A stretch of DNA of 55,023 nt, from positions 1 to 55,023 of the IMG/VR virus record IMGVR_UViG_3300037469_000008; one strand, 5' to 3'. This DNA is from a virus (Duplodnaviria > Caudoviricetes). The notes below the pieces were generated by a model. The model did not search any database and was not told the DNA's origin. It saw only the letters and a list, made by a program, of their open reading frames with translations. The position numbers and the translations under genes were made by a program. This document shows positions 1-15,507 of this stretch, one piece after another; the stretch's first letter is position 1, and the number at the start of each line of letters is the position of its first letter.

Positions 1-139
1 GCTATCGCTGGCGATGGAACAACTTATGCCGCTAGTGAAAGACTCCAACGACCATATAGCAGACTTGCGCAGGCGCACAGAATTGGCGCAGCAAAGGAGA
101 GCGGGATGAATATATCAATCTCAACGAGGTATAGCCCAT
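1..139. repeat. Terminal direct repeat / circular assembly overlap with 54885-55023
   Basis: 139 bp identical except G13 vs T54897 (GCG/GCT, Ala in TerL); joins TerL end to portal start. Confidence 0.97.
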
Positions 140-2264
140 GAGTAGAAACCGCGCACACAAGAAACGTCCTATGCTCGAACGCGCTGCTATGCCCGTGAGT
201 GCCGCAACATCCGGCCCGGTGGTCTCGATCCCGCTTTCGGTGTGGAACCAGATGTTCCAGAGCATGGCACCACAGAAGAGCCAGGCGGAAACATTCAGCC
301 CAGGTGCGCCACTGCAACCCATTCCTGGTATCACACCCGCCGCAGGCCCGCGCCAGTGGAGTTACCCTGTCGGATTCAACCTGGCTGGGAACGATCGGAC
401 ACTTCAGCGCGACTATATTCCGGCATTCCAGCAGTTGCGCCTGCTTGCCCAGACCTATAGCGCCGTCGGCACGGCAGAGCGTATCTGGTGCGATCTCATC
501 CCGCGTATGGATATGCAGGTGACGCTAACGGATGAGTTGAAAGCAGCAGGCAAAGACGACAAGGACTATACCCGCGAACGTTTGGGCTACCTGAACTTCT
601 TCGAGAAGCCGGACGGACAAGACGACTATCACGAATGGCTGCGCAAGGCCATCGTCGATCAAACACAGATTGACGCGCTCGTGATGTTCAAGCGTCGCAC
701 CCGAGGTGGCAAGTTGCAGGGACTGGATATCCTCGATGGATCGGACATCAAGCCCTTGCTCGATGAGCGCGGGCGTGTCCCAGTCCCGCCCTATGCTGCG
801 TTTCAGCAATACTCCTACGGCACACCAGGGCAAGCCTACACAACCGAAGACATGATTTACTATCGCGAGAGTCCGCGCACGTTCTCCCCTTACGGCTTCT
901 CGCGGGTCGAACGCATTATCACCATCGTCAATATCGCGCTCAGGAAGCAACAGAAAGACCTCCTGCGCTACACGGACGGGAATATTCCTGCGGGCATCAT
1001 GGAGGTTCCCGATACCAGCGGTTGGACGCCTGACCAGATTGAGACCTTTGAGCAGATGTGGAATAGCCTGCTCGCTGGCAATGCGCAGCAACAGGTGCGC
1101 ATCAAGTTCACTCAGCCCGGCATGAAATACTCGCCCTTTGACCAGCCAGAAGCGCAGTTGCACCTAACCGAATTCGACATGTTTCTACTCAACATCTGCG
1201 CTGGCGTGTATGGCGTCTCGATGGCTGATCTCGCTATGACGGGTGACATCCACAAGAGTGCAGACGAAGGCCAGCAAAACATGCTCTACCGCAGAACGAT
1301 AGAGCCGCTGGCGATCGCCTACGGGCGAATCTTCACGAAGATTTTGCGCGAAGACATTGGCGACCCGCGCTTTGTGGTGAAGTTCGGAGGCTACGACGAA
1401 AAAGAGGATGTTGGCCAGCAGGTGTCCGCATTCGCGCAGGGTATCCAGAACGCCATGATTTCGCCCGCAGACGCTGCGGCAAAACTCGGCTGGCCTGACA
1501 TTCCCAAAACTGGCCCGCTCTTTATTACCAAAGGCGGCATCACCCCACTGGCCAGCTTCGAGATTGGCTCCGCGTCACGTCAGACCAGCGACGATGCGCA
1601 GCTCGCAGGCTTCCAGTTAGCGGCGCAAGGGCAACCAGAGGCAAAAGGCAATCCGGGCAAGCAGGATCAGGTAGCGGGTGGCAAGGAACCGCCGAAAGAC
1701 GGACAGGATACGGCATCGCCAGCACCAGGACAGAAAGAAGACGAGGAATCGCCGGTTTCGCGTGTCGCCGAGATGATCCAGAAAGCCGATGAGATCCTGG
1801 CAATTATCCGCGCACAGAACGTGACGCCACCATGGCCGAAAGAGGAAGACATTGAGCAGAGGACACAACAAGACCCAGAAGAGCTACCTGGAAATCGCAC
1901 GCCAGAGGGAACCTCTCTTCAATCAGATGCACATCCACGAGCAGCGGGCGTATCTGAAATCAGTCATCCGCACGATGGGAGCGAACAGGCTGCCAGAAGC
2001 GCCGATTATCGTAGATGGCGAGAGCGAGCCATCGCAGACGTAAAGGCAGGGAGAGCGCAAAGGCCATTCGAGAGTACGCTGATTTCGAATGATACGTATA
2101 CCTATCTTTTTCAGGAGTTGGCTCGCTGTGAATGTCCCGATGACGTGCGCGCAGCCTTTGAACGCGCGAAAAACCGCGAAAGGGACGCAAGTTTTTTCGT
2201 GACCGCCGTCGGCAGTGGCGGCAACCCACACCCGAGCAGGAGCGATTGGAAACTCAGATGGTAG
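138..2264 (+). CDS. Portal protein with long C-terminal extension
   Basis: Follows TerL; motifs DGSDIKPLLDERG, YGFSRVE, YTDGNIPAG; SD GAGGT. Confidence 0.92.
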   Translation: MSRNRAHKKRPMLERAAMPVSAATSGPVVSIPLSVWNQMFQSMAPQKSQAETFSPGAPLQPIPGITPAAGPRQWSYPVGFNLAGNDRTLQRDYIPAFQQLRLLAQTYSAVGTAERIWCDLIPRMDMQVTLTDELKAAGKDDKDYTRERLGYLNFFEKPDGQDDYHEWLRKAIVDQTQIDALVMFKRRTRGGKLQGLDILDGSDIKPLLDERGRVPVPPYAAFQQYSYGTPGQAYTTEDMIYYRESPRTFSPYGFSRVERIITIVNIALRKQQKDLLRYTDGNIPAGIMEVPDTSGWTPDQIETFEQMWNSLLAGNAQQQVRIKFTQPGMKYSPFDQPEAQLHLTEFDMFLLNICAGVYGVSMADLAMTGDIHKSADEGQQNMLYRRTIEPLAIAYGRIFTKILREDIGDPRFVVKFGGYDEKEDVGQQVSAFAQGIQNAMISPADAAAKLGWPDIPKTGPLFITKGGITPLASFEIGSASRQTSDDAQLAGFQLAAQGQPEAKGNPGKQDQVAGGKEPPKDGQDTASPAPGQKEDEESPVSRVAEMIQKADEILAIIRAQNVTPPWPKEEDIEQRTQQDPEELPGNRTPEGTSLQSDAHPRAAGVSEISHPHDGSEQAARSADYRRWRERAIADVKAGRAQRPFESTLISNDTYTYLFQELARCECPDDVRAAFERAKNRERDASFFVTAVGSGGNPHPSRSDWKLRW
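1852..2043 (+). CDS. Candidate overprinted 63-aa ORF nested in portal linker
   Basis: SD AGAGGA plus TTG; protein-like sequence where the portal frame is low-complexity. Confidence 0.4.
   Translation: MSRGHNKTQKSYLEIARQREPLFNQMHIHEQRAYLKSVIRTMGANRLPEAPIIVDGESEPSQT
2192..2221 (+). promoter_or_regulatory. Candidate -1 frameshift site (T TTT TTC plus hairpin) joining portal to gpF-like ORF
   Basis: Heptamer 2192-2198 is in portal phase; -1 frame is open from 2162 to 2911; hairpin 2203-2221. Confidence 0.7.
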
Positions 2265-2911
2265 CCACGCTTCGTGAGTTGTTCGCGAAGGCACGCCGTC
2301 CGAGTCAGGACGACAAAGAGCGCGCGGTGCATGTGCTGGCCAGTATCATCGAGCAGGCGAAAGCCATTGGCCATGCACACGCGAGCCAGGAAGAAGAGCG
2401 TGCAACGGCCTGGGGCGGGAAGTTTCAGCACGCTCTCAGCAGTGCCTGGAACATCGTCAACAACTTTGTCCAGCGTATCGCGGATTGGTTCGCGGGACAA
2501 GACGAAGTGACAGAGGAGGATGTCGAGGCGGAAGTTGATTCGCTGGCTGAACGCGTGGCGAGTTACGAGGTGGCTACGGCCATCGAAGAGCAGGTGCTGG
2601 AAACGCTTTACTTTGCGGGTGTTACGATGGTGCAATCCATCGCTCAACCTGGGGCGTGTCAGCCCTGCCAGGATAAAGCGGACGATGGACCAAAGCCGAT
2701 CAATGATTTCGATCCGCCTCCGTACCACGGGGGGTGCCGATGTAGCGCAGCGCCTGCCGATAATGTACGCGTGATTCGTTCTGTACAGCGACTAATAAAC
2801 AAGCAGGGCACATGCAACTGTGAGACATGCCGCTCTATGGCTGGGATGCCTGTAGACGAGAATGGGCCGCCATTTCACGATGGCTGTGATTGTACGACCG
2901 AGGAGGAATAA
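2246..2911 (+). CDS. Mu gpF / SPP1 gp7-like minor head protein
   Basis: CQPC...PPYHGGCRCS motif, duplicated as CETC...PPFHDGCDCT; lies after portal. Confidence 0.8.
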   Translation: METQMVATLRELFAKARRPSQDDKERAVHVLASIIEQAKAIGHAHASQEEERATAWGGKFQHALSSAWNIVNNFVQRIADWFAGQDEVTEEDVEAEVDSLAERVASYEVATAIEEQVLETLYFAGVTMVQSIAQPGACQPCQDKADDGPKPINDFDPPPYHGGCRCSAAPADNVRVIRSVQRLINKQGTCNCETCRSMAGMPVDENGPPFHDGCDCTTEEE

Positions 2912-2966
2912 AAAGTCCGTCTCAGGATTGCGCACCAGCGACTGCACAGTAAGGAGACTGAGAACA

Positions 2967-3401
2967 ATGGGATTACAGGACATCCTATATCATATGGAGA
3001 TCGCGCACGATCAACTTACTTACCTCATCGAACAAGGACAACGGACCAAAGAAGAACACAATGCGAGAGGTGAGCGAGAAAGATTTTTCCATTTCGAGTA
3101 TGAGCACAGTGAGAATTCCAGGGGCGCCCAAGATATTCTCGCATACGACGCCGAGAGCGCATTCAAATGGTTTGCTTATGTTGTGATAGAGATTTTTAAA
3201 TTGCACCCGCGCAATATCTCGTACAAAGAACAAGGAGAAAGAGATGCCAACATCGAAACGAAAACCAGCAGCAAAGAATCCCGTAGAGTTGCCTACGGTG
3301 GTGCAGACAGCAACGCCAGAGCCAGAGATGCCCACGGAAGCCCAAGTGCAGACAATGACAGAGGAAGCGTTTGCGCCGACGGAGCCAATGGTTCTCAGTG
3401 A
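2967..3401 (+). CDS. Hypothetical protein (3' end overlaps next gene)
   Basis: SD AAGGAG plus ATG 2967. Confidence 0.5.
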   Translation: MGLQDILYHMEIAHDQLTYLIEQGQRTKEEHNARGERERFFHFEYEHSENSRGAQDILAYDAESAFKWFAYVVIEIFKLHPRNISYKEQGERDANIETKTSSKESRRVAYGGADSNARARDAHGSPSADNDRGSVCADGANGSQ

Positions 3402-3672
3402 ACAGGAACTTGCGGTGGATCTCCATCGCTTGCTTGAGCAGTTTGCACCACAGCCACCAGAAGCAGCAACCGCGCTTGCTCAGATGGTGCGCGATACTGC
3501 CAGCACGCGTGATGTCCTTTTCGTGCCAGAGCCGGGGGTCGTGCTCATGTTTGGTTATGGTGGACTTGTGCGTGTGCTGCCAGCGCATCGGCATGTGCAT
3601 ATTGCCACCGTGGACGAGTTAGCCGCGATGAGCGATCAGCAGGTCTATGATGCAGTAAAGGATGCAAAATGA
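3244..3672 (+). CDS. Hypothetical protein
   Basis: SD AAGGAG; ATGA overlap with next gene. Confidence 0.75.
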   Translation: MPTSKRKPAAKNPVELPTVVQTATPEPEMPTEAQVQTMTEEAFAPTEPMVLSEQELAVDLHRLLEQFAPQPPEAATALAQMVRDTASTRDVLFVPEPGVVLMFGYGGLVRVLPAHRHVHIATVDELAAMSDQQVYDAVKDAK

Positions 3673-3896
3673 TCGAGCAAGCAGCGCATACACAGCGTGT
3701 CACCTGCTCACAGCCAGGTCCGCGCAACGCACGAGGCCAGCCCAAGCCACTTGCGACGATTGAGCCGGACGGAATATGGGTGTATTGCGGTCACTGCAAA
3801 GAGCCGCACTTTCTTGCGCGCTCGGTGGTCATGGCAGCATGGGGACGTGGCGGGAGTGTGCAGTGTGGATGGCAGGATGAAGCGGGTGTGGAATGA
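3669..3896 (+). CDS. Small Zn-ribbon protein, Mu Com-like regulator candidate
   Basis: VTC...KPLA...GIWVYCGHCKEPH; precedes structured leader of capsid operon. Confidence 0.55.
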   Translation: MIEQAAHTQRVTCSQPGPRNARGQPKPLATIEPDGIWVYCGHCKEPHFLARSVVMAAWGRGGSVQCGWQDEAGVE

Positions 3897-4090
3897 CGGT
3901 GTTCACGCTCTGCGGTGGGTTCTGTAAACTCCTGTGGCGGCTGGTAGCCATGTTGCTCAACATAGTGATCAATCATATCTGGCATGGCGTAGACATGCCC
4001 GTTACGAAAAGCGAGAATGACATCCCCGCTGCTTGTTTCGCGGTTACAGTATTCGCAGATGTCTCCTCTCGCGCCATTCTACCACAACCC

Positions 4091-4119
4091 TTGCACGCGC
4101 GTGGGCCGTATGGTATGCT
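4091..4119 (+). promoter_or_regulatory. Sigma70-type promoter for capsid operon
   Basis: TTGCAC-N17-TATGCT with TG extension. Confidence 0.65.
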
Positions 4120-4120
4120 T

Positions 4121-4202
4121 GACGCAAGAGAACAAAAGAGAGCCTAAGCGTTTCACGACGGGCCACAGTCCACGGGACTGCGGGCCGTTTTTTATTGCGT
4201 CT
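4121..4202 (+). terminator. Structured leader / attenuator upstream of protease gene
   Basis: GGGCCACAGTCC-ACG-GGACTGCGGGCC plus T-run, bracketed by GACGCAA/TTGCGTC. Confidence 0.6.
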
Positions 4203-4225: not shown

Positions 4226-5887
4226 ATGGCAAAATGGACTGCTGCAAAGCGTAAGAAATACCTCGAAGAACACCCCGAAAATTTTGCCGGGCCAGATGGT
4301 AGCTACCCGATTGAAGACGCATCTGATGTAGGCGACGCGTGGGGGCTGGCTGGTCACGCTGCTGATCCCGATGCCGTGCGTGCCAAAATCAAATCTATCG
4401 CCAAACGCTTGGGCCTGGAAAGTGGCCTCCCCGACACGGCCAAAGAAGACAACAAGGAGCGCTCTATGGACCCCATCGGTGCGGACAATGATGGCAACCA
4501 TGAGCCTATGACTGGCAAACACTCACACGTCCATCCCGCATTTGGGAGCCAGGGCGACGACGATAGCCACGAACACGATCACAGCCACGATGGGGACGCC
4601 GATCACCAGCACGATCATGGGAAGCGCACAGAGATGCCCAGCCAGGCGCTGCTGTATATGCCCATCACCCGCATCGACAATGAGAGACGAGAAGTAGAGG
4701 GCGTGGCGACATCGGAGGCTATTGACTCGTTCAAGACCATTTTCAGCTACAAGGCGAGCAAGAGAGCGTTTCAGGACTGGATCGAGCGTACCGCCAACTG
4801 CCGCGAGATGCACGAGCGCAAGGCCGTAGGCAAGGGCATCGGCGTTTTTTTTGACGACGAGAACAAGAAAATCATCGTGCGCAGTCGTGTCTCTCGCTCT
4901 GCCGATGGGGAGAATACCTGGATCAAGTTCCAGGAGGGCATTCTCAACGGCTACAGCGTCGGGGCGACCAATCCCGTGTGGAGCACCGTCGATCGCGATG
5001 GCAAAATCTACCCCTATCTCGTGAGTTACAAACTTGGTGAACTTTCCTACGTTGATAACGCGTCTAACCCGGACGCGCAGGGCCTGACCATCTGCCGCGC
5101 CGATGGGCTCACTGAACTGGTAGATACCACCGAAGACACCTCTCCTGCTCAAGTTCCGGCTGTCTCTTCTTCCGCGGTTGTGCGAGCCGGCGCGCGGGTC
5201 TCCGATTCTACACGCGCGGCTATGCACGACTCAATCAAGCACACACTGCACGCCGCATCCTCTCAGATGCAGAACTGCGGGTGTGACACCTGCCAAAATG
5301 CCATGAGCCACCTGGACCCGGATGGGGATGGCGATATCGACATCGGCGGTTACGACGATCCTGACAACGACGCCGAGAGCCTGTACAACGGCAAGAACAA
5401 CGCTGACATGGACCGCGCCGTGATTGCGGCCTTAGAGCGCGTCTTGCCCGTGGTCGTCGAGCGCATGTTCGCGCCCGTCTACCAGCGCCAGCAGCAACTG
5501 CTTGCACGACTGGCGCAAACACCTGAAGAAACACCCTCTTTCAATACATCCGAACTGGAAGAACGGCTTACCTCTGCCATTGTAGAGCGAGTGGCCTCTG
5601 CCTCTAGCCTGTCTGAGTTGCGCGCTGATCTGTCAGCGGTAAAGGAGGCGGTAGAGCGCATTGAGAACCAGCCCGCTGTTGGCCTAGCTCCGATTCTCAA
5701 CGGGTCACGTCCCGTTGACAAATCTTTCCCGCTTGATCGAGTCGCCCAGGGGGCAAACGCCGCGCCCGCGCCGCCCGGTGTGATGCAACGTGCGCTCTCT
5801 GCTATGCAGGGAGCGGGCATGCTCGACACACAAGATATGCAAACAAAAGCGGCGACGCTGCTTCTCCAGATGCAGCAGCCCCGCTAA
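4226..5887 (+). CDS. Prohead protease / scaffold fusion with DUF6582-like N-terminus and His-rich linker
   Basis: REMH, GILNGYSVG, ELSYVDNASNPDA protease motifs; C-terminal coiled coil. Confidence 0.85.
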   Translation: MAKWTAAKRKKYLEEHPENFAGPDGSYPIEDASDVGDAWGLAGHAADPDAVRAKIKSIAKRLGLESGLPDTAKEDNKERSMDPIGADNDGNHEPMTGKHSHVHPAFGSQGDDDSHEHDHSHDGDADHQHDHGKRTEMPSQALLYMPITRIDNERREVEGVATSEAIDSFKTIFSYKASKRAFQDWIERTANCREMHERKAVGKGIGVFFDDENKKIIVRSRVSRSADGENTWIKFQEGILNGYSVGATNPVWSTVDRDGKIYPYLVSYKLGELSYVDNASNPDAQGLTICRADGLTELVDTTEDTSPAQVPAVSSSAVVRAGARVSDSTRAAMHDSIKHTLHAASSQMQNCGCDTCQNAMSHLDPDGDGDIDIGGYDDPDNDAESLYNGKNNADMDRAVIAALERVLPVVVERMFAPVYQRQQQLLARLAQTPEETPSFNTSELEERLTSAIVERVASASSLSELRADLSAVKEAVERIENQPAVGLAPILNGSRPVDKSFPLDRVAQGANAAPAPPGVMQRALSAMQGAGMLDTQDMQTKAATLLLQMQQPR

Positions 5888-12262: not shown

Positions 12263-12712
12263 ATGGGTGCATTCGATCAAGTCACAAATATCACGGTTCC
12301 TGATGACGAGGGAGATCCCATCGGGGCAACGGCATTCCGCAAACGCTACGGATGGGAGCCGCACGAAGTCGTGATCATGCGCGGGATGTTCACCACCGGG
12401 GACATGGAGGCAGTTGGTAACGCATCCATGTCGGTAGACAAAAACAAGCCCACATTCTCAGGTGGAAGTGGGCGTGTGCATCTGCTGCACCGCATGATTG
12501 TGGATTGGACGTTTTCGGCGGGCGGGCGCAAAGTGCCGGTAACACTTGACGCCATCAGGCGACTTCCTGCCAACTACTCGACGCCACTCCTGGAGAAGTG
12601 CGATGCGCTGGCGCAGGGCATGACAGAGGAAGAACAATCCGATTTTTTCGGCTCTGCAAACGGGCATTCAGAGGAAAACTCAAACGCGATGAGCGTGTCC
12701 CTATCGACATAA
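12263..12712 (+). CDS. Tail assembly chaperone (gpG-like)
   Basis: IVDWTF...PVTLDAIRRL; ends near slippery site. Confidence 0.85.
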   Translation: MGAFDQVTNITVPDDEGDPIGATAFRKRYGWEPHEVVIMRGMFTTGDMEAVGNASMSVDKNKPTFSGGSGRVHLLHRMIVDWTFSAGGRKVPVTLDAIRRLPANYSTPLLEKCDALAQGMTEEEQSDFFGSANGHSEENSNAMSVSLST

Positions 12713-12858
12713 TCGAGAATGAAGTCTGGCCCGTCTTTGGCGGCTACTGGGGGTATTTGGCAGCCCCGATCATCAAGACGCAAAAGCAAATGCTTGTTGT
12801 CCAGGCCCGCCACGAAGCGAAGTCGGAAATCGACGCAGAGAACCAACCATCAACGTAA
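12643..12858 (+). CDS. -1 frameshift extension of tail chaperone (gpGT-like, about 198 aa fusion)
   Basis: T TTT TTC at 12643-12649; -1 frame open to 12858, just before tape measure. Confidence 0.85.
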   Translation, partial: FFRLCKRAFRGKLKRDERVPIDIIENEVWPVFGGYWGYLAAPIIKTQKQMLVVQARHEAKSEIDAENQPST

Positions 12859-12867
12859 GGAAAGAGC

Positions 12868-15507
12868 ATGGCGGCAGGAGACATTGCACTAAAACTCATT
12901 CTTGCAGGAAATGCTACGAGCGCGATTGCTGCCATGTCTGGGCTAACAAAACAGAGCCTGAATCTTAAGAACGTGGTAGCGATGGCCGGACTCGCAGCGG
13001 GCGCCGCCATGGTTGATTTTGGGGCCCAGAGTGTGCATGCAGCGGGTGATTTTGGGGCGGGCATGACGACACTGCAAACAGGCGCAGGAGAGCTTGCAAG
13101 CAACATGAATCTTGTCTCCAATGGCGTCCTCGATATGTCCACACAGACGGGGGAGAGTACCAAGCAACTCACCGATGGCATGTTTATGATCGAGAGCGCC
13201 GGCTATCGAGGCGCGGATGGCCTGAATGTGCTCAAGGACGCTGCGGAAGGTGCAAAAGTCGGCAACGCTGACCTCGGCGTGGTTGCGAATGCCGAGACTA
13301 CTGTCATGAAAGACTACGGAATCAGTGCCAATAACGCAGCCACGGCCATGAATTTCCTGACGGCCATTGTGCAAAATGGCAAGACCACATTGCAAGACCT
13401 CGCGTCCTCTATGTCTCAGGTACTTCCTACCGCAGCTGCGGTCAAAGTGCATCTTGTCGATGTTGGCGGCGCCATGGCAACGATGACTAGCGAAGGCGTG
13501 CCTGCCGCGAACGCTGCCACCTATTTGCGCCAGATGCTCATCTCGCTTGCCGCGCCATCCTCTGCCGGATCAAAGGCGCTCAAAGACATCGGGCTTTCCA
13601 GTCAGCAGGTCTCCGATGAAATGAAAAAGAGCCTGCCTGGCGCGCTGCAACTGATTATGTTGCATCTGGGCGAGACCTACAAGGTTGGCTCGCCGCAGTA
13701 TGTGACCGCACTCAAAAACATCGCAGGCGGCAGCAAGCAAATGCAGGGCATGCTCGACTTAACAGGTTCACATCTCAAAGAGTTCCAGGCGAATGTCAAG
13801 AACGTCTCCGGCACAATGAACCAGGGCAAGGGATCGGTGGTCGGATGGTCGCTGGTCCAGCAGGATTTCAACTTCAAAATGGCACAGGCCGGACAGGCAG
13901 TCAATGTACTCATGATCCGCCTGGGAACGGCGCTCTTGCCCATCGTCTCGTCCGTCGTGACTTCGTTCTCGAACTTCGTCTCCTGGCTCAGCCAGGGCAG
14001 CACTGGCGCACGCGCGCTCGAAGTCGCACTCGGTGTCGTAGTGGGGGCGCTCACGGCGTTCGCGATCGGCATGGGGGTACTGAAAGCCATCTCCATCGCG
14101 CAAACGCTCGCAAGTTGGGTGAGTGGCTTTATTGCCATGATCCCGGCCATGTGGGGAGCCGTCACGGCATCCTGGGCATTTACCGCGTCGCTGCTCGCTA
14201 ATCCCATCACCTGGATCGTGCTCGCTATCATTGCGCTCATCGCGGGTCTGGTCCTGCTCATCACGCACTGGAGCCAGGTGGTTTCCTTTTTGCGCGGCGT
14301 CTGGGGCGCGGTCGTCTCCTGGCTTGCTGGAATCTGGACGAACATCAAAAATACTGCTATTTCTGTTTTTACCTCTATTGTCAATTTCTTCACAGAAACT
14401 TGGACCCGGGTAAAAAACACAGCAACAAATATTTGGGGAGGTATTGTTGGGTTTTTGTCTGGAATCTGGTCGCGAGTGACTAGCGTATTCTCATCCGTAT
14501 GGCGCGGGATAGTAAGCGTACTAACCGTTATCTGGGATATTATCAAAATGACAGCTTTTGTTATTTTTGCAATAATTGTTGCCATAATTCTCAAACCATT
14601 TGTTCCGCTTATTGACTGGTTCCGCGCACATTGGGCGCAGATACAGGCAGCACTTTCCACTGCTTGGCGGACGATCCAAAATATAGCCTCAACCATATGG
14701 ACTGCGATAGGCAATTTTTTCTCGACAATAGGCACTTTTATCCATAATTTAATCACAACCGTTTGGTCCGCGACTTCTAGCTTTCTGCTCGGAATATGGT
14801 CAAATATATCAAAAGTCGCATCTTCTATTTGGTCAGGAATAACAACATTTTTCCGAATAGAACTCATTGGATGGAAAAATATCATCTCAACCGTTTGGGT
14901 CTGGATTTCCGGTTTTTTGTCGAAGATTTGGTCTGGGATCAAATCTGCGGCGTCCTCAATTTGGGGCGGAATAAGTTCATCAATCATGAATGTGGTCCAT
15001 AGTTTGCAAGATAAACTCAGCAATATATGGGGAAATATAAAATCTGCATTTTCTAACGCCATGAATTCGCTGGCGGGGATCGCGCATGGTGCCTGGAGTG
15101 CCGTATCAGGCGCGATCAAATCCGCGATCAATACCGTTATCGGGCTGATCAATGGGATGATCGACGGGGTGAACAGCGTCACAAGCAAAGTGGGTATCCC
15201 GTCGATCCCGCATATTCCCTACCTGGCCAGCGGAGGGAGCAACCTTTCATCCGGCATGTACTGGGTAGGTGAATCTGGACCAGAACTGTTGTGGATTCCG
15301 CAGGGATCGACTGTCATGTCGCATCAGCAGAGCACTGCACTCGTGTCGCGTCCTGGTAGCTATGCGCTCGCTGGCCGAGGTGGCGGCTCGTCCACCATTG
15401 TCGTGCAGCCTGCGCCAGTTTATCTCGACAAGCGGCAGGTGGGGCAAATCCTCTTCAACTATCAGGCTTCGGAGATTCGCAAACAGGGAGGCATCAGGCA
15501 CCGATGA
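12868..15507 (+). CDS. Tape measure protein (TP901-type)
   Basis: Ala-rich N-domain, TM segments, about 11-aa Trp periodicity, YLASGG...VGESGPELL. Confidence 0.93.
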   Translation: MAAGDIALKLILAGNATSAIAAMSGLTKQSLNLKNVVAMAGLAAGAAMVDFGAQSVHAAGDFGAGMTTLQTGAGELASNMNLVSNGVLDMSTQTGESTKQLTDGMFMIESAGYRGADGLNVLKDAAEGAKVGNADLGVVANAETTVMKDYGISANNAATAMNFLTAIVQNGKTTLQDLASSMSQVLPTAAAVKVHLVDVGGAMATMTSEGVPAANAATYLRQMLISLAAPSSAGSKALKDIGLSSQQVSDEMKKSLPGALQLIMLHLGETYKVGSPQYVTALKNIAGGSKQMQGMLDLTGSHLKEFQANVKNVSGTMNQGKGSVVGWSLVQQDFNFKMAQAGQAVNVLMIRLGTALLPIVSSVVTSFSNFVSWLSQGSTGARALEVALGVVVGALTAFAIGMGVLKAISIAQTLASWVSGFIAMIPAMWGAVTASWAFTASLLANPITWIVLAIIALIAGLVLLITHWSQVVSFLRGVWGAVVSWLAGIWTNIKNTAISVFTSIVNFFTETWTRVKNTATNIWGGIVGFLSGIWSRVTSVFSSVWRGIVSVLTVIWDIIKMTAFVIFAIIVAIILKPFVPLIDWFRAHWAQIQAALSTAWRTIQNIASTIWTAIGNFFSTIGTFIHNLITTVWSATSSFLLGIWSNISKVASSIWSGITTFFRIELIGWKNIISTVWVWISGFLSKIWSGIKSAASSIWGGISSSIMNVVHSLQDKLSNIWGNIKSAFSNAMNSLAGIAHGAWSAVSGAIKSAINTVIGLINGMIDGVNSVTSKVGIPSIPHIPYLASGGSNLSSGMYWVGESGPELLWIPQGSTVMSHQQSTALVSRPGSYALAGRGGGSSTIVVQPAPVYLDKRQVGQILFNYQASEIRKQGGIRHR

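Follow-up and report, generated by a model that had tools for sequence, protein, structure and literature searches.

Portal gene and overlapping reading frame

We analysed the 3' end of the portal gene in a 55,023-bp linear virus record from IMG/VR (IMGVR_UViG_3300037469_000008; G+C 55%, CheckV completeness estimate 54%), the whole of which is referred to here as the window. The portal gene (138-2264, + strand) encodes 708 amino acids (aa) in the 0 frame, the termination product expected without a shift, and ends at a TAG stop codon (2262-2264). This open reading frame (ORF) passed the gathering score of PF04860 (Phage_portal) with 66.4 bits against a cut-off of 39.1, over residues 154-451, and matched the portal family phrog_2662 with an E value of 3.3e-49. 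Its codons AGT TTT TTC (2190-2198) contain the heptamer T_TTT_TTC (2192-2198, + strand) in the X_XXY_YYZ phase of the portal frame, and we propose this heptamer as the site of a tandem -1 slippage. The -1 frame is open from 2162, after a TGA codon (2159-2161), to a stop codon at 2909-2911, so that both frames are open over 34 codons (2162-2264, + strand). The computed trans-frame product is 924 aa long. A first-pass annotation of the window had predicted a programmed -1 frameshift at this place; the heptamer and its phase, the -1 frame that opens after the TGA and runs into the downstream ORF, and the lengths of 708 and 924 aa were all reproduced here. Of 13155 codon positions in the long + strand ORFs of the window, 27 have an in-phase X_XXY_YYZ heptamer, a background rate that predicts about 0.07 such heptamers by chance in the 34-codon overlap.

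The nearest portals in GTDB (39-42% identity) are on contigs from metagenome-assembled genomes of Ktedonobacterales and Chloroflexia, and the host of the window phage is therefore probably a member of the Chloroflexota. A blastn search of window positions 1-4200 against a phage collection gave zero matches, and tblastn of the portal against cultured phages gave distant matches only (30% identity or less).

Two further elements flank the heptamer. Downstream, a putative stimulatory hairpin (2205-2222, + strand) is predicted with its 5' arm at 2205-2210, a loop at 2211-2216 and its 3' arm at 2217-2222. The spacer between heptamer and hairpin is 6 nt (2199-2204), and the 3' arm shares bases with the -1-frame codons for W-R-Q. 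Upstream, a purine-rich AAGGGA (2180-2185, + strand) is separated from the heptamer by 6 nt. This element is a possible Shine-Dalgarno-like stimulator but could also be a by-product of codon conservation, being confounded with conserved E-R-D codons in which Arg is AGG. Duplexes of its energy (-5.2 kcal/mol) are not uncommon in the background. Of the 14 loci compared below, 11 have a GGGA/GGAG-type element that ends 5-9 nt ahead of the heptamer, and L010, L013 and L032 lack one.

The -1-frame coding part after the shift (2198-2911, + strand) is encoded directly after the portal gene and would contribute a post-shift peptide of 239 aa, including the two Phe codons of the heptamer. The window -1 ORF matched phrog_115 ('minor head protein') with an E value of 1.8e-8 and did not match PF04233 (Phage_Mu_F) in Pfam even at E ≤ 10. 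Among 11 family members, four matched PF04233 weakly (best E 4.5e-4) and seven matched PF25310 (VG15; best E 6e-6). The score of L032 against PF04233 was 22.4 bits, under the cut-off of 29.6. A profile built from the aligned -1 products of 11 loci (alignment A2) matched the -1 ORF of L087 (E 3.6e-21) as well as L083 and L089-L093 (E 1e-16 to 1e-18), and PF04233 passed its gathering score over the same C-terminal region in L087 (51.4 bits), L051 (45.5 bits) and L047 (39.3 bits). The link between the window module and PF04233 is thus transitive, because it is made via the family profile to PF04233-carrying ORFs. The label 'gpF-like' given in the first-pass annotation holds only in part, through phrog_115 and the family profile; a Pfam Phage_Mu_F match of the window ORF itself does not back it.

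An H-x-x-C-x-C motif (2726-2743, + strand) is preceded in the module by a C-x-x-C, and the five residues concerned (C156, C159, H179, C182 and C184) are invariant in 11/11 sequences of A2. A second H-x-x-C-x-C motif (2876-2893, + strand) is located in a C-terminal extension and is present only in the window among the 11 aligned loci. An AlphaFold2 model of the -1 product made from A2 (mean predicted local distance difference test score, pLDDT, 69.6) has helices followed by a small beta/alpha domain. A Foldseek search of this model against the PDB returned nothing at E ≤ 0.001, only generic helical bundles, and was uninformative about the family. Judged by its sequence, the module is best described as having helices in its N-terminal part and, after them, a diverged domain of the MuF type with C-x-x-C ... 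H-x-x-C-x-C.

Conservation of the junction among relatives

We found 204 portal homologs at E ≤ 0.001, and 120 of these are listed. The DNA of relatives was drawn from IMG/VR, one metagenome scan and GTDB genomes, and duplicates were removed. The metagenome scan with alignment A3 (the five closest sequences) gave two loci, one of them duplicating L029, and a viral scan with A3 gave nothing beyond duplicates of loci already in the set. This resulted in 14 distinct loci with the shared layout, namely the window and L001, L003, L007, L009, L010, L011, L013, L014, L029, L030, L032, L033 and L095. All 14 have an in-phase heptamer at the identical aligned position, in three kinds: T_TTT_TTC in seven loci, T_TTT_TTA in three and C_CCA_AAA in four. 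Loci of the same clade that encode in-frame fusions, or in which the portal ends shortly, have no heptamer at the aligned site. The -1 frame opens exactly at the heptamer in L032 and L014 and two codons before it in L029, which pins the shift site. The first-pass annotation had proposed the conservation of heptamer and overlap in related portals as a check, and the outcome was strongly positive.

A GC-rich hairpin follows the heptamer at 5-6 nt in all 14 loci. Both the minimum free energy (MFE) fold and the relatives favour the register 2205-2210/2217-2222 in the window. In the nine loci that align unambiguously, 54 of 54 stem cells are paired, and two of the six pairs are altered on both sides (G-C to U-A in four of the nine loci, C-G to U-A in one). 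The covariation score was 0.296, as opposed to 0.124 in shuffled alignments, and none of 500 shuffles reached it. Sliding the partner by 1-3 columns destroyed the pairing. One of the compensatory changes is synonymous in the -1 frame (Arg CGG/AGG) and is coupled to the other arm. In L001 and in the L003/L009/L013 group, a different hairpin is present at an equal distance from the heptamer. Stability was ranked against real 30-nt windows of each locus, which replaced a shuffle test because GC-rich shuffles fold well. By this measure the hairpin was in the top 5% in 14/14 loci, with a median of 0.3% and a value of 1.3% for the window. The existence of a hairpin, as predicted in the first pass, is thus upheld at a local top 1.3%, and the register then given (2203-2209/2215-2221), offset by 3 nt on the 3' side from the favoured one, is demoted to an alternative.

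The -1 products of the 11 loci in A2 align from the heptamer onward. Residues W9, R10, P12, Q16 and E20 of the post-shift peptide are invariant (2216-2251 in the window, + strand). In every locus, the stretch of the -1 frame from the upstream stop to the heptamer is free of ATG, GTG and TTG. The first candidate start comes 16-77 codons past the heptamer (77 in L003, 52 in L001 and 18 in the window). W9, R10, P12 and Q16 are encoded upstream of the first start in 11/11 aligned loci; in the window, this first start is TTG 2246.

We also compared substitutions in the overlap between all pairs of the 11 loci. Differences numbered 553, 408 and 660 at -1-frame codon positions 1, 2 and 3. The controls gave 1119, 956 and 1736 in the upstream portal frame and 1580, 1326 and 2006 in the downstream -1 frame. 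The pattern in the overlap is that of a translated frame, and we therefore read the -1 frame as the selected one. The most variable overlap position is the second codon position of the 0 frame. These counts fit purifying selection acting on the -1 frame and not on the 0 frame. Because the -1 frame appears to carry the selection, the 0-frame tail S-G-G-N ... W-K-L-R-W of many annotated portals is best seen as a shadow of the -1-frame motif W-R-Q-P ... L-E.

A natural control comes from L035 (identical in L036), where the portal and the complete MuF-like module are encoded in a single 794-aa ORF. Residues 23-553 of this protein align with the portal frame of L032 (65% identity) up to a point 3 nt short of the L032 heptamer, and residues 580-786 align with the -1 frame of L032 at 51% identity, beginning just past the hairpin. 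By this alignment, L035 is an in-frame fused ortholog that follows the predicted frame switch of L032, and it provides clean colinearity evidence.

We then classed the 115 portal homologs with a C-terminal anchor block by their annotated proteins. A frameshift-type tail (x-F-F, x-F-L, x-P-K, x-P-F or x-P-L at the site) is present in 53 of the 115, with the heptamers inferred from residues only. In another 37, a MuF-like Cys/His domain is fused in frame at the same junction, and 25 have short or other ends. On a FastTree phylogeny of the portal core, the three architectures (frameshift, fusion and short) need at least 33 changes, and the C-terminal module has therefore often been exchanged or remodelled. 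The two nearest portals of the window are themselves of different types, P0004 being short and P0005 an in-frame fusion. These patterns indicate strong mosaicism at the C-terminal junction of the portal. A likeness between the linker W-Q-x-x-D ... Q-L-E of in-frame fusions and the window's W-R-Q-P ... L-E was dropped as an argument. It is ambiguous, because phmmer aligns the domain of the fusions to a later part of the window module.

Many portals of the clade also carry other insertions. A 2'-5' RNA ligase-like domain interrupts the variable linker that precedes the C-terminal block in many of them, among them P0013, P0017, P0024, P0031, P0034, P0036 and others of about 850-1190 aa (PF13563, in some also PF02834). 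Eight portals (P0007, P0012, P0022, P0041, P0054, P0066, P0091 and P0097) have an internal P-P-x-H-x-G-C-x-C motif around residue 590-620. These have a frameshift-type tail, and the window instead has its second motif copy at the end of the -1 ORF. From these positions, the small Cys/His unit seems to be mobile.

Probable ribosomal frameshifting and other explanations

We consider it very likely that the 3' end of the portal gene is a programmed -1 ribosomal frameshift cassette that joins the portal to a MuF/gp7-like domain. Heptamers and hairpins in 14/14 loci, -1-frame conservation that starts at the heptamer and the frame switch seen in L035 support the frameshift called in the first pass. 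Under the proposed mechanism, most ribosomes would stay in the 0 frame and terminate at 2262-2264, giving the 708-aa portal. A fraction would be held up by the hairpin (2205-2222) while the transfer RNAs (tRNAs) of the P and A sites are on TTT TTC, and both tRNAs would slip one base back on T_TTT_TTC (2192-2198). The shifted ribosomes would then read the -1 frame to 2909-2911 and produce a 924-aa portal extended at its C-terminus by a helical linker and by a MuF/SPP1-gp7-like Cys/His domain. We infer that the slippage is ribosomal and sub-stoichiometric.

The fusion would plausibly be a minority product that sets the number of MuF domains per portal ring, as the first-pass annotation supposed. 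Fused subunits would co-assemble into the dodecameric portal, with a few MuF-like domains facing the capsid interior. In such a particle, by analogy with the few copies of gp7 in SPP1, the portal-linked MuF domain would replace the non-covalent recruitment of gp7 by the portal in SPP1.

Several observations weigh against frameshifting. The 14 loci are related, and counts and combined statistics over them are not independent trials. U_UUU_UUC is not known to be among the most efficient heptamers in Escherichia coli, and the tRNA set of the host may differ. When the 99 nt from the heptamer of the window were folded and compared with shuffles, the result was not significant (z -0.73), and a 45-nt fold compared with mononucleotide shuffles gave z 0.1 for the window, in a range of 0.1 to -3.98 over the loci. 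Longer proteins that contain the complete -1 module were searched for and not found, a result of little weight. Finally, a Met codon lies at the overlap with the 0-frame stop in 5/6 loci of the closest subgroup of the window, where ATG 2258 is 4 nt before the portal stop; termination-reinitiation could therefore also yield a free MuF-like protein. Some free protein could thus be made from ATG 2258 in addition to the fusion.

Taken further, that last observation leads to a reading with two ordinary adjacent genes, in which the MuF-like protein is made only from TTG 2246 or ATG 2258 and the heptamer and hairpin are incidental. The ATG forms a coupling-type overlap at which reinitiation at the TAG is possible, and the more distant L088 and L092 have a separate MuF gene with an ATG overlapping the portal stop and no heptamer. 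As the exclusive explanation, we judge this improbable. Every possible start lies downstream of the invariant W, R, P and Q, most strikingly in L003 and L001, and the overlap has the substitution pattern of a coding -1 frame. Three kinds of heptamer are kept in phase throughout the 14 loci, and L035 is a natural in-frame ortholog. The ribosome-binding signal is also poor: AGGAG (2238-2242) is spaced 3 nt from TTG 2246 and 15 nt from ATG 2258, corresponds to E-Q-E codons, and is not conserved among relatives, being AAGAG in L011, L030 and L095. The first-pass annotation had called the start weak for its TTG only 3 nt from AGGAG, which agrees with this lack of conservation, yet the Met codon at the stop in most of the closest loci has to be set beside it.

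The same fusion could in principle arise if RNA polymerase slipped on the T6 run (2192-2197) and added one U in some transcripts, and the heptamer does contain a T6 run in 10 of the 14 loci. The four loci with C_CCA_AAA, however, have only four A in a row, and productive transcriptional slippage is usually reported for longer runs. The X_XXY_YYZ phase is kept throughout, which is relevant to tRNA re-pairing and not to the polymerase, and a hairpin at 5-6 nt has the geometry of a ribosomal stimulator. We regard transcriptional slippage as highly unlikely. We give still less credence to an artefact or recent decay, in which the true gene would be an in-frame fusion and the T run of the window would be off by one base through misassembly or through a recent frameshift mutation. 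Homopolymers are prone to such indels, and in-frame fusions at this junction make up 37 of the 115 anchored homologs. The -1 offset, however, is present in 14 distinct loci from different samples whose -1 products share 30-63% identity, including those with non-homopolymer heptamers, and the hairpin is conserved together with its spacing. An independent Logan assembly of one run, which may come from the source sample, shows the same sequence as the window across 1500-3000, free of indels, at a depth of about 11; contigs of another run cover 1525-1675 only. The runs found for the region included no RNA run.

Related systems and biological meaning

In tailed phages, the -1 frameshifting of tail chaperones is textbook knowledge, and a few capsid genes are also known to use it. 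The window has a candidate of the former kind, and the first-pass annotation was right that it has the identical heptamer. An ORF of 149 aa (12263-12712) carries T_TTT_TTC in phase at 12643-12649, and its -1 ORF reaches 12858, stopping 10 nt before an 879-aa ORF (12868-15507) that presumably encodes the tape measure. From the sequence, the layout of 12263-12858 is that of a classical G/GT-like tail chaperone pair; neither of the two chaperone ORFs matched Pfam or PHROG. Elsewhere in the window, a T8 run (4845-4852) inside a protease-like ORF (4226-5887; phrog_9427, residues 141-301) creates an in-phase T_TTT_TTT. No -1 ORF of at least 50 aa follows it, and it is probably incidental.

The -1 frameshift of lambda G/GT-type tail assembly chaperones was reportedly described by Xu, Hendrix and Duda in 2004, a work cited in PMC7302621 and PMC7911831. 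The portal cassette resembles it in that an upstream structural ORF carries an X_XXY_YYZ heptamer close to its end, that the -1 frame adds a second domain, and that two products would share their N-terminal part. It differs in that the pair is a portal and a MuF-like head protein and not chaperones before a tape measure, and in its conserved hairpin. The extended product of tail assembly chaperones is not known to be part of virions, whereas the portal fusion would be a virion part in a 12-fold ring. In E. coli dnaX (tau/gamma), a -1 heptamer acts with a downstream hairpin and an upstream Shine-Dalgarno-like element, and the shift gives the shorter product. The window shares the heptamer and the downstream hairpin, and possibly the upstream element in the form of AAGGGA. 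Unlike in dnaX, the shift in the window would lengthen the protein, and the upstream element of the 14 loci is incompletely conserved and only 5-9 nt away, compared with about 10.

The capsid genes are closer in outcome. A capsid -1 frameshift of Lactobacillus phage A2 is said to have been described by Garcia et al. in 2004, a reference given in PMC10885494, and the available part of another paper mentions that of phage T7 (10A/10B; PMC12846349). In both, a -1 shift near the end of a head gene produces a minor, C-terminally extended structural protein that co-assembles, as is proposed here. There the major capsid protein is extended. In the window it would be the portal, of which a virion has one 12-mer, and the added part would be a MuF-like module recognisable as an independent unit.

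The two modules are known to be joined in other phages. Microbacterium phages of Clusters EA3/EA5/EA8 and EB have in-frame portal-MuF fusion genes, and the accessible portion of the paper mentions no frameshift for them (PMC7302621). The Arthrobacter phage Sonali has a protein annotated as 'portal and MuF-like fusion protein' with 28.7% identity to the window portal. These fusions have the same modules in the same order on one polypeptide, but they place a MuF domain on every portal subunit, whereas the join in the window needs a change of frame and two products are expected. In SPP1, the MuF-family protein gp7 is encoded beside the portal gp6. According to the sections available, it is directed 'in a few number of copies' to the procapsid interior by way of the portal and helps infection to begin (PMC6316719). 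The neighbouring gene order is alike. The SPP1 proteins are separate and interact non-covalently, whereas the link in the window would be covalent and its copy number would be set by the efficiency of recoding.

The PRFect paper, as far as its text was available, includes MuF-like and VIP2 genes among its predictions and puts forward the general idea that genes fused elsewhere may be joined by frameshifting; the word 'portal' has 0 occurrences in that text (PMC10885494). In full-text literature, with subscription journals and supplements outside the search, we found no description of a frameshift at a portal-MuF junction, including in the available text of PMC7911831, PMC12846349 and PMC10299305. 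This agrees with the first-pass statement that none was known. In-frame portal-MuF fusions and -1 frameshifting are thus each known, and recoding at this gene pair, which we did not find described, is apparently new.

Related sites occur outside the 14 loci. Two GC-rich IMG/VR loci have in-phase heptamers (L047, C_CCT_TTC at 4826-4832; L051, C_CCT_TTG at 4769-4775) that fall in the interval where the in-frame orthologs L048, L057-L059 and L063 switch from the portal to the -1 frame. In L087, a prophage of Acrocarpospora catenulata, a C_CCA_AAA is located at the frame switch. Compared with its Nonomuraea and Streptosporangium orthologs (68-77% identity), L087 has an insertion of 8 nt or 5 nt just past the heptamer, which creates the -1 layout and makes the fusion dependent on a -1 shift. 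The -1 ORF of L087 (5369-6922) encodes a MuF domain and then an ADP-ribosyltransferase exoenzyme domain (PF03496, E 7.6e-15). This is a MuF-toxin fusion of a type known from temperate phages, and in L087 frameshifting may attach it to the portal. Three more distant portals, left out of the 14 loci, have an in-phase C_CCT_TTA (L061, 2473-2479; L062, 5117-5123; L064, 3099-3105). They have a Pro/Ser-rich 0-frame tail, a protein-like -1 frame and an ATG overlapping the portal stop, and their folds gave no stable hairpin. As frameshift sites they are ambiguous.

The prophages L089-L093 (Actinocrispum, Nonomuraea and Streptosporangium) encode in-frame portal-MuF proteins and retain an in-phase C_CCA_AAA at the junction. 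Both codons are rare in these loci (Lys AAA/AAG 2/20 to 7/15; Pro CCA 2-10 of 66-76), and the -1 frame stops after 10, 11, 10 and 43 codons, the last in L089. This suggests a reverse polarity shared with dnaX, in which the shift would give the shorter product and remove the MuF domain. The retained heptamer could also result from common descent. It is conceivable, although we think it unlikely on present evidence, that the ratio of plain to MuF-carrying portals is a selected trait set by -1 frameshifting in both polarities, adding the domain in the soil-phage clade of the window and, after its 8-nt insertion, in L087, and removing it in L089-L093. If this were true, frameshifting would be a general means of breaking the portal's 12-fold symmetry and of loading a few copies of internal or ejected cargo, including MuF-linked toxin domains such as the ADP-ribosyltransferase of L087.

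The cassette also bears on annotation. Gene callers cut the MuF-like ORF at an arbitrary internal start, and about half of the portal clade (53/115 homologs, by residue pattern) is probably mis-annotated at the start of this ORF. The related sites in prophages of cultured actinomycetes make the idea open to experiment. Within one portal clade, the cassette would explain why the same modules are found separately encoded, fully fused and fused by way of a frameshift. The portal is the unique 12-fold vertex through which DNA enters and exits, and how a few copies of an internal protein such as SPP1 gp7 or a MuF-toxin are counted onto it is a question of assembly. If the frameshift reading is true, the counting device would be the efficiency of frameshifting multiplied by twelve, which predicts mixed portal rings.

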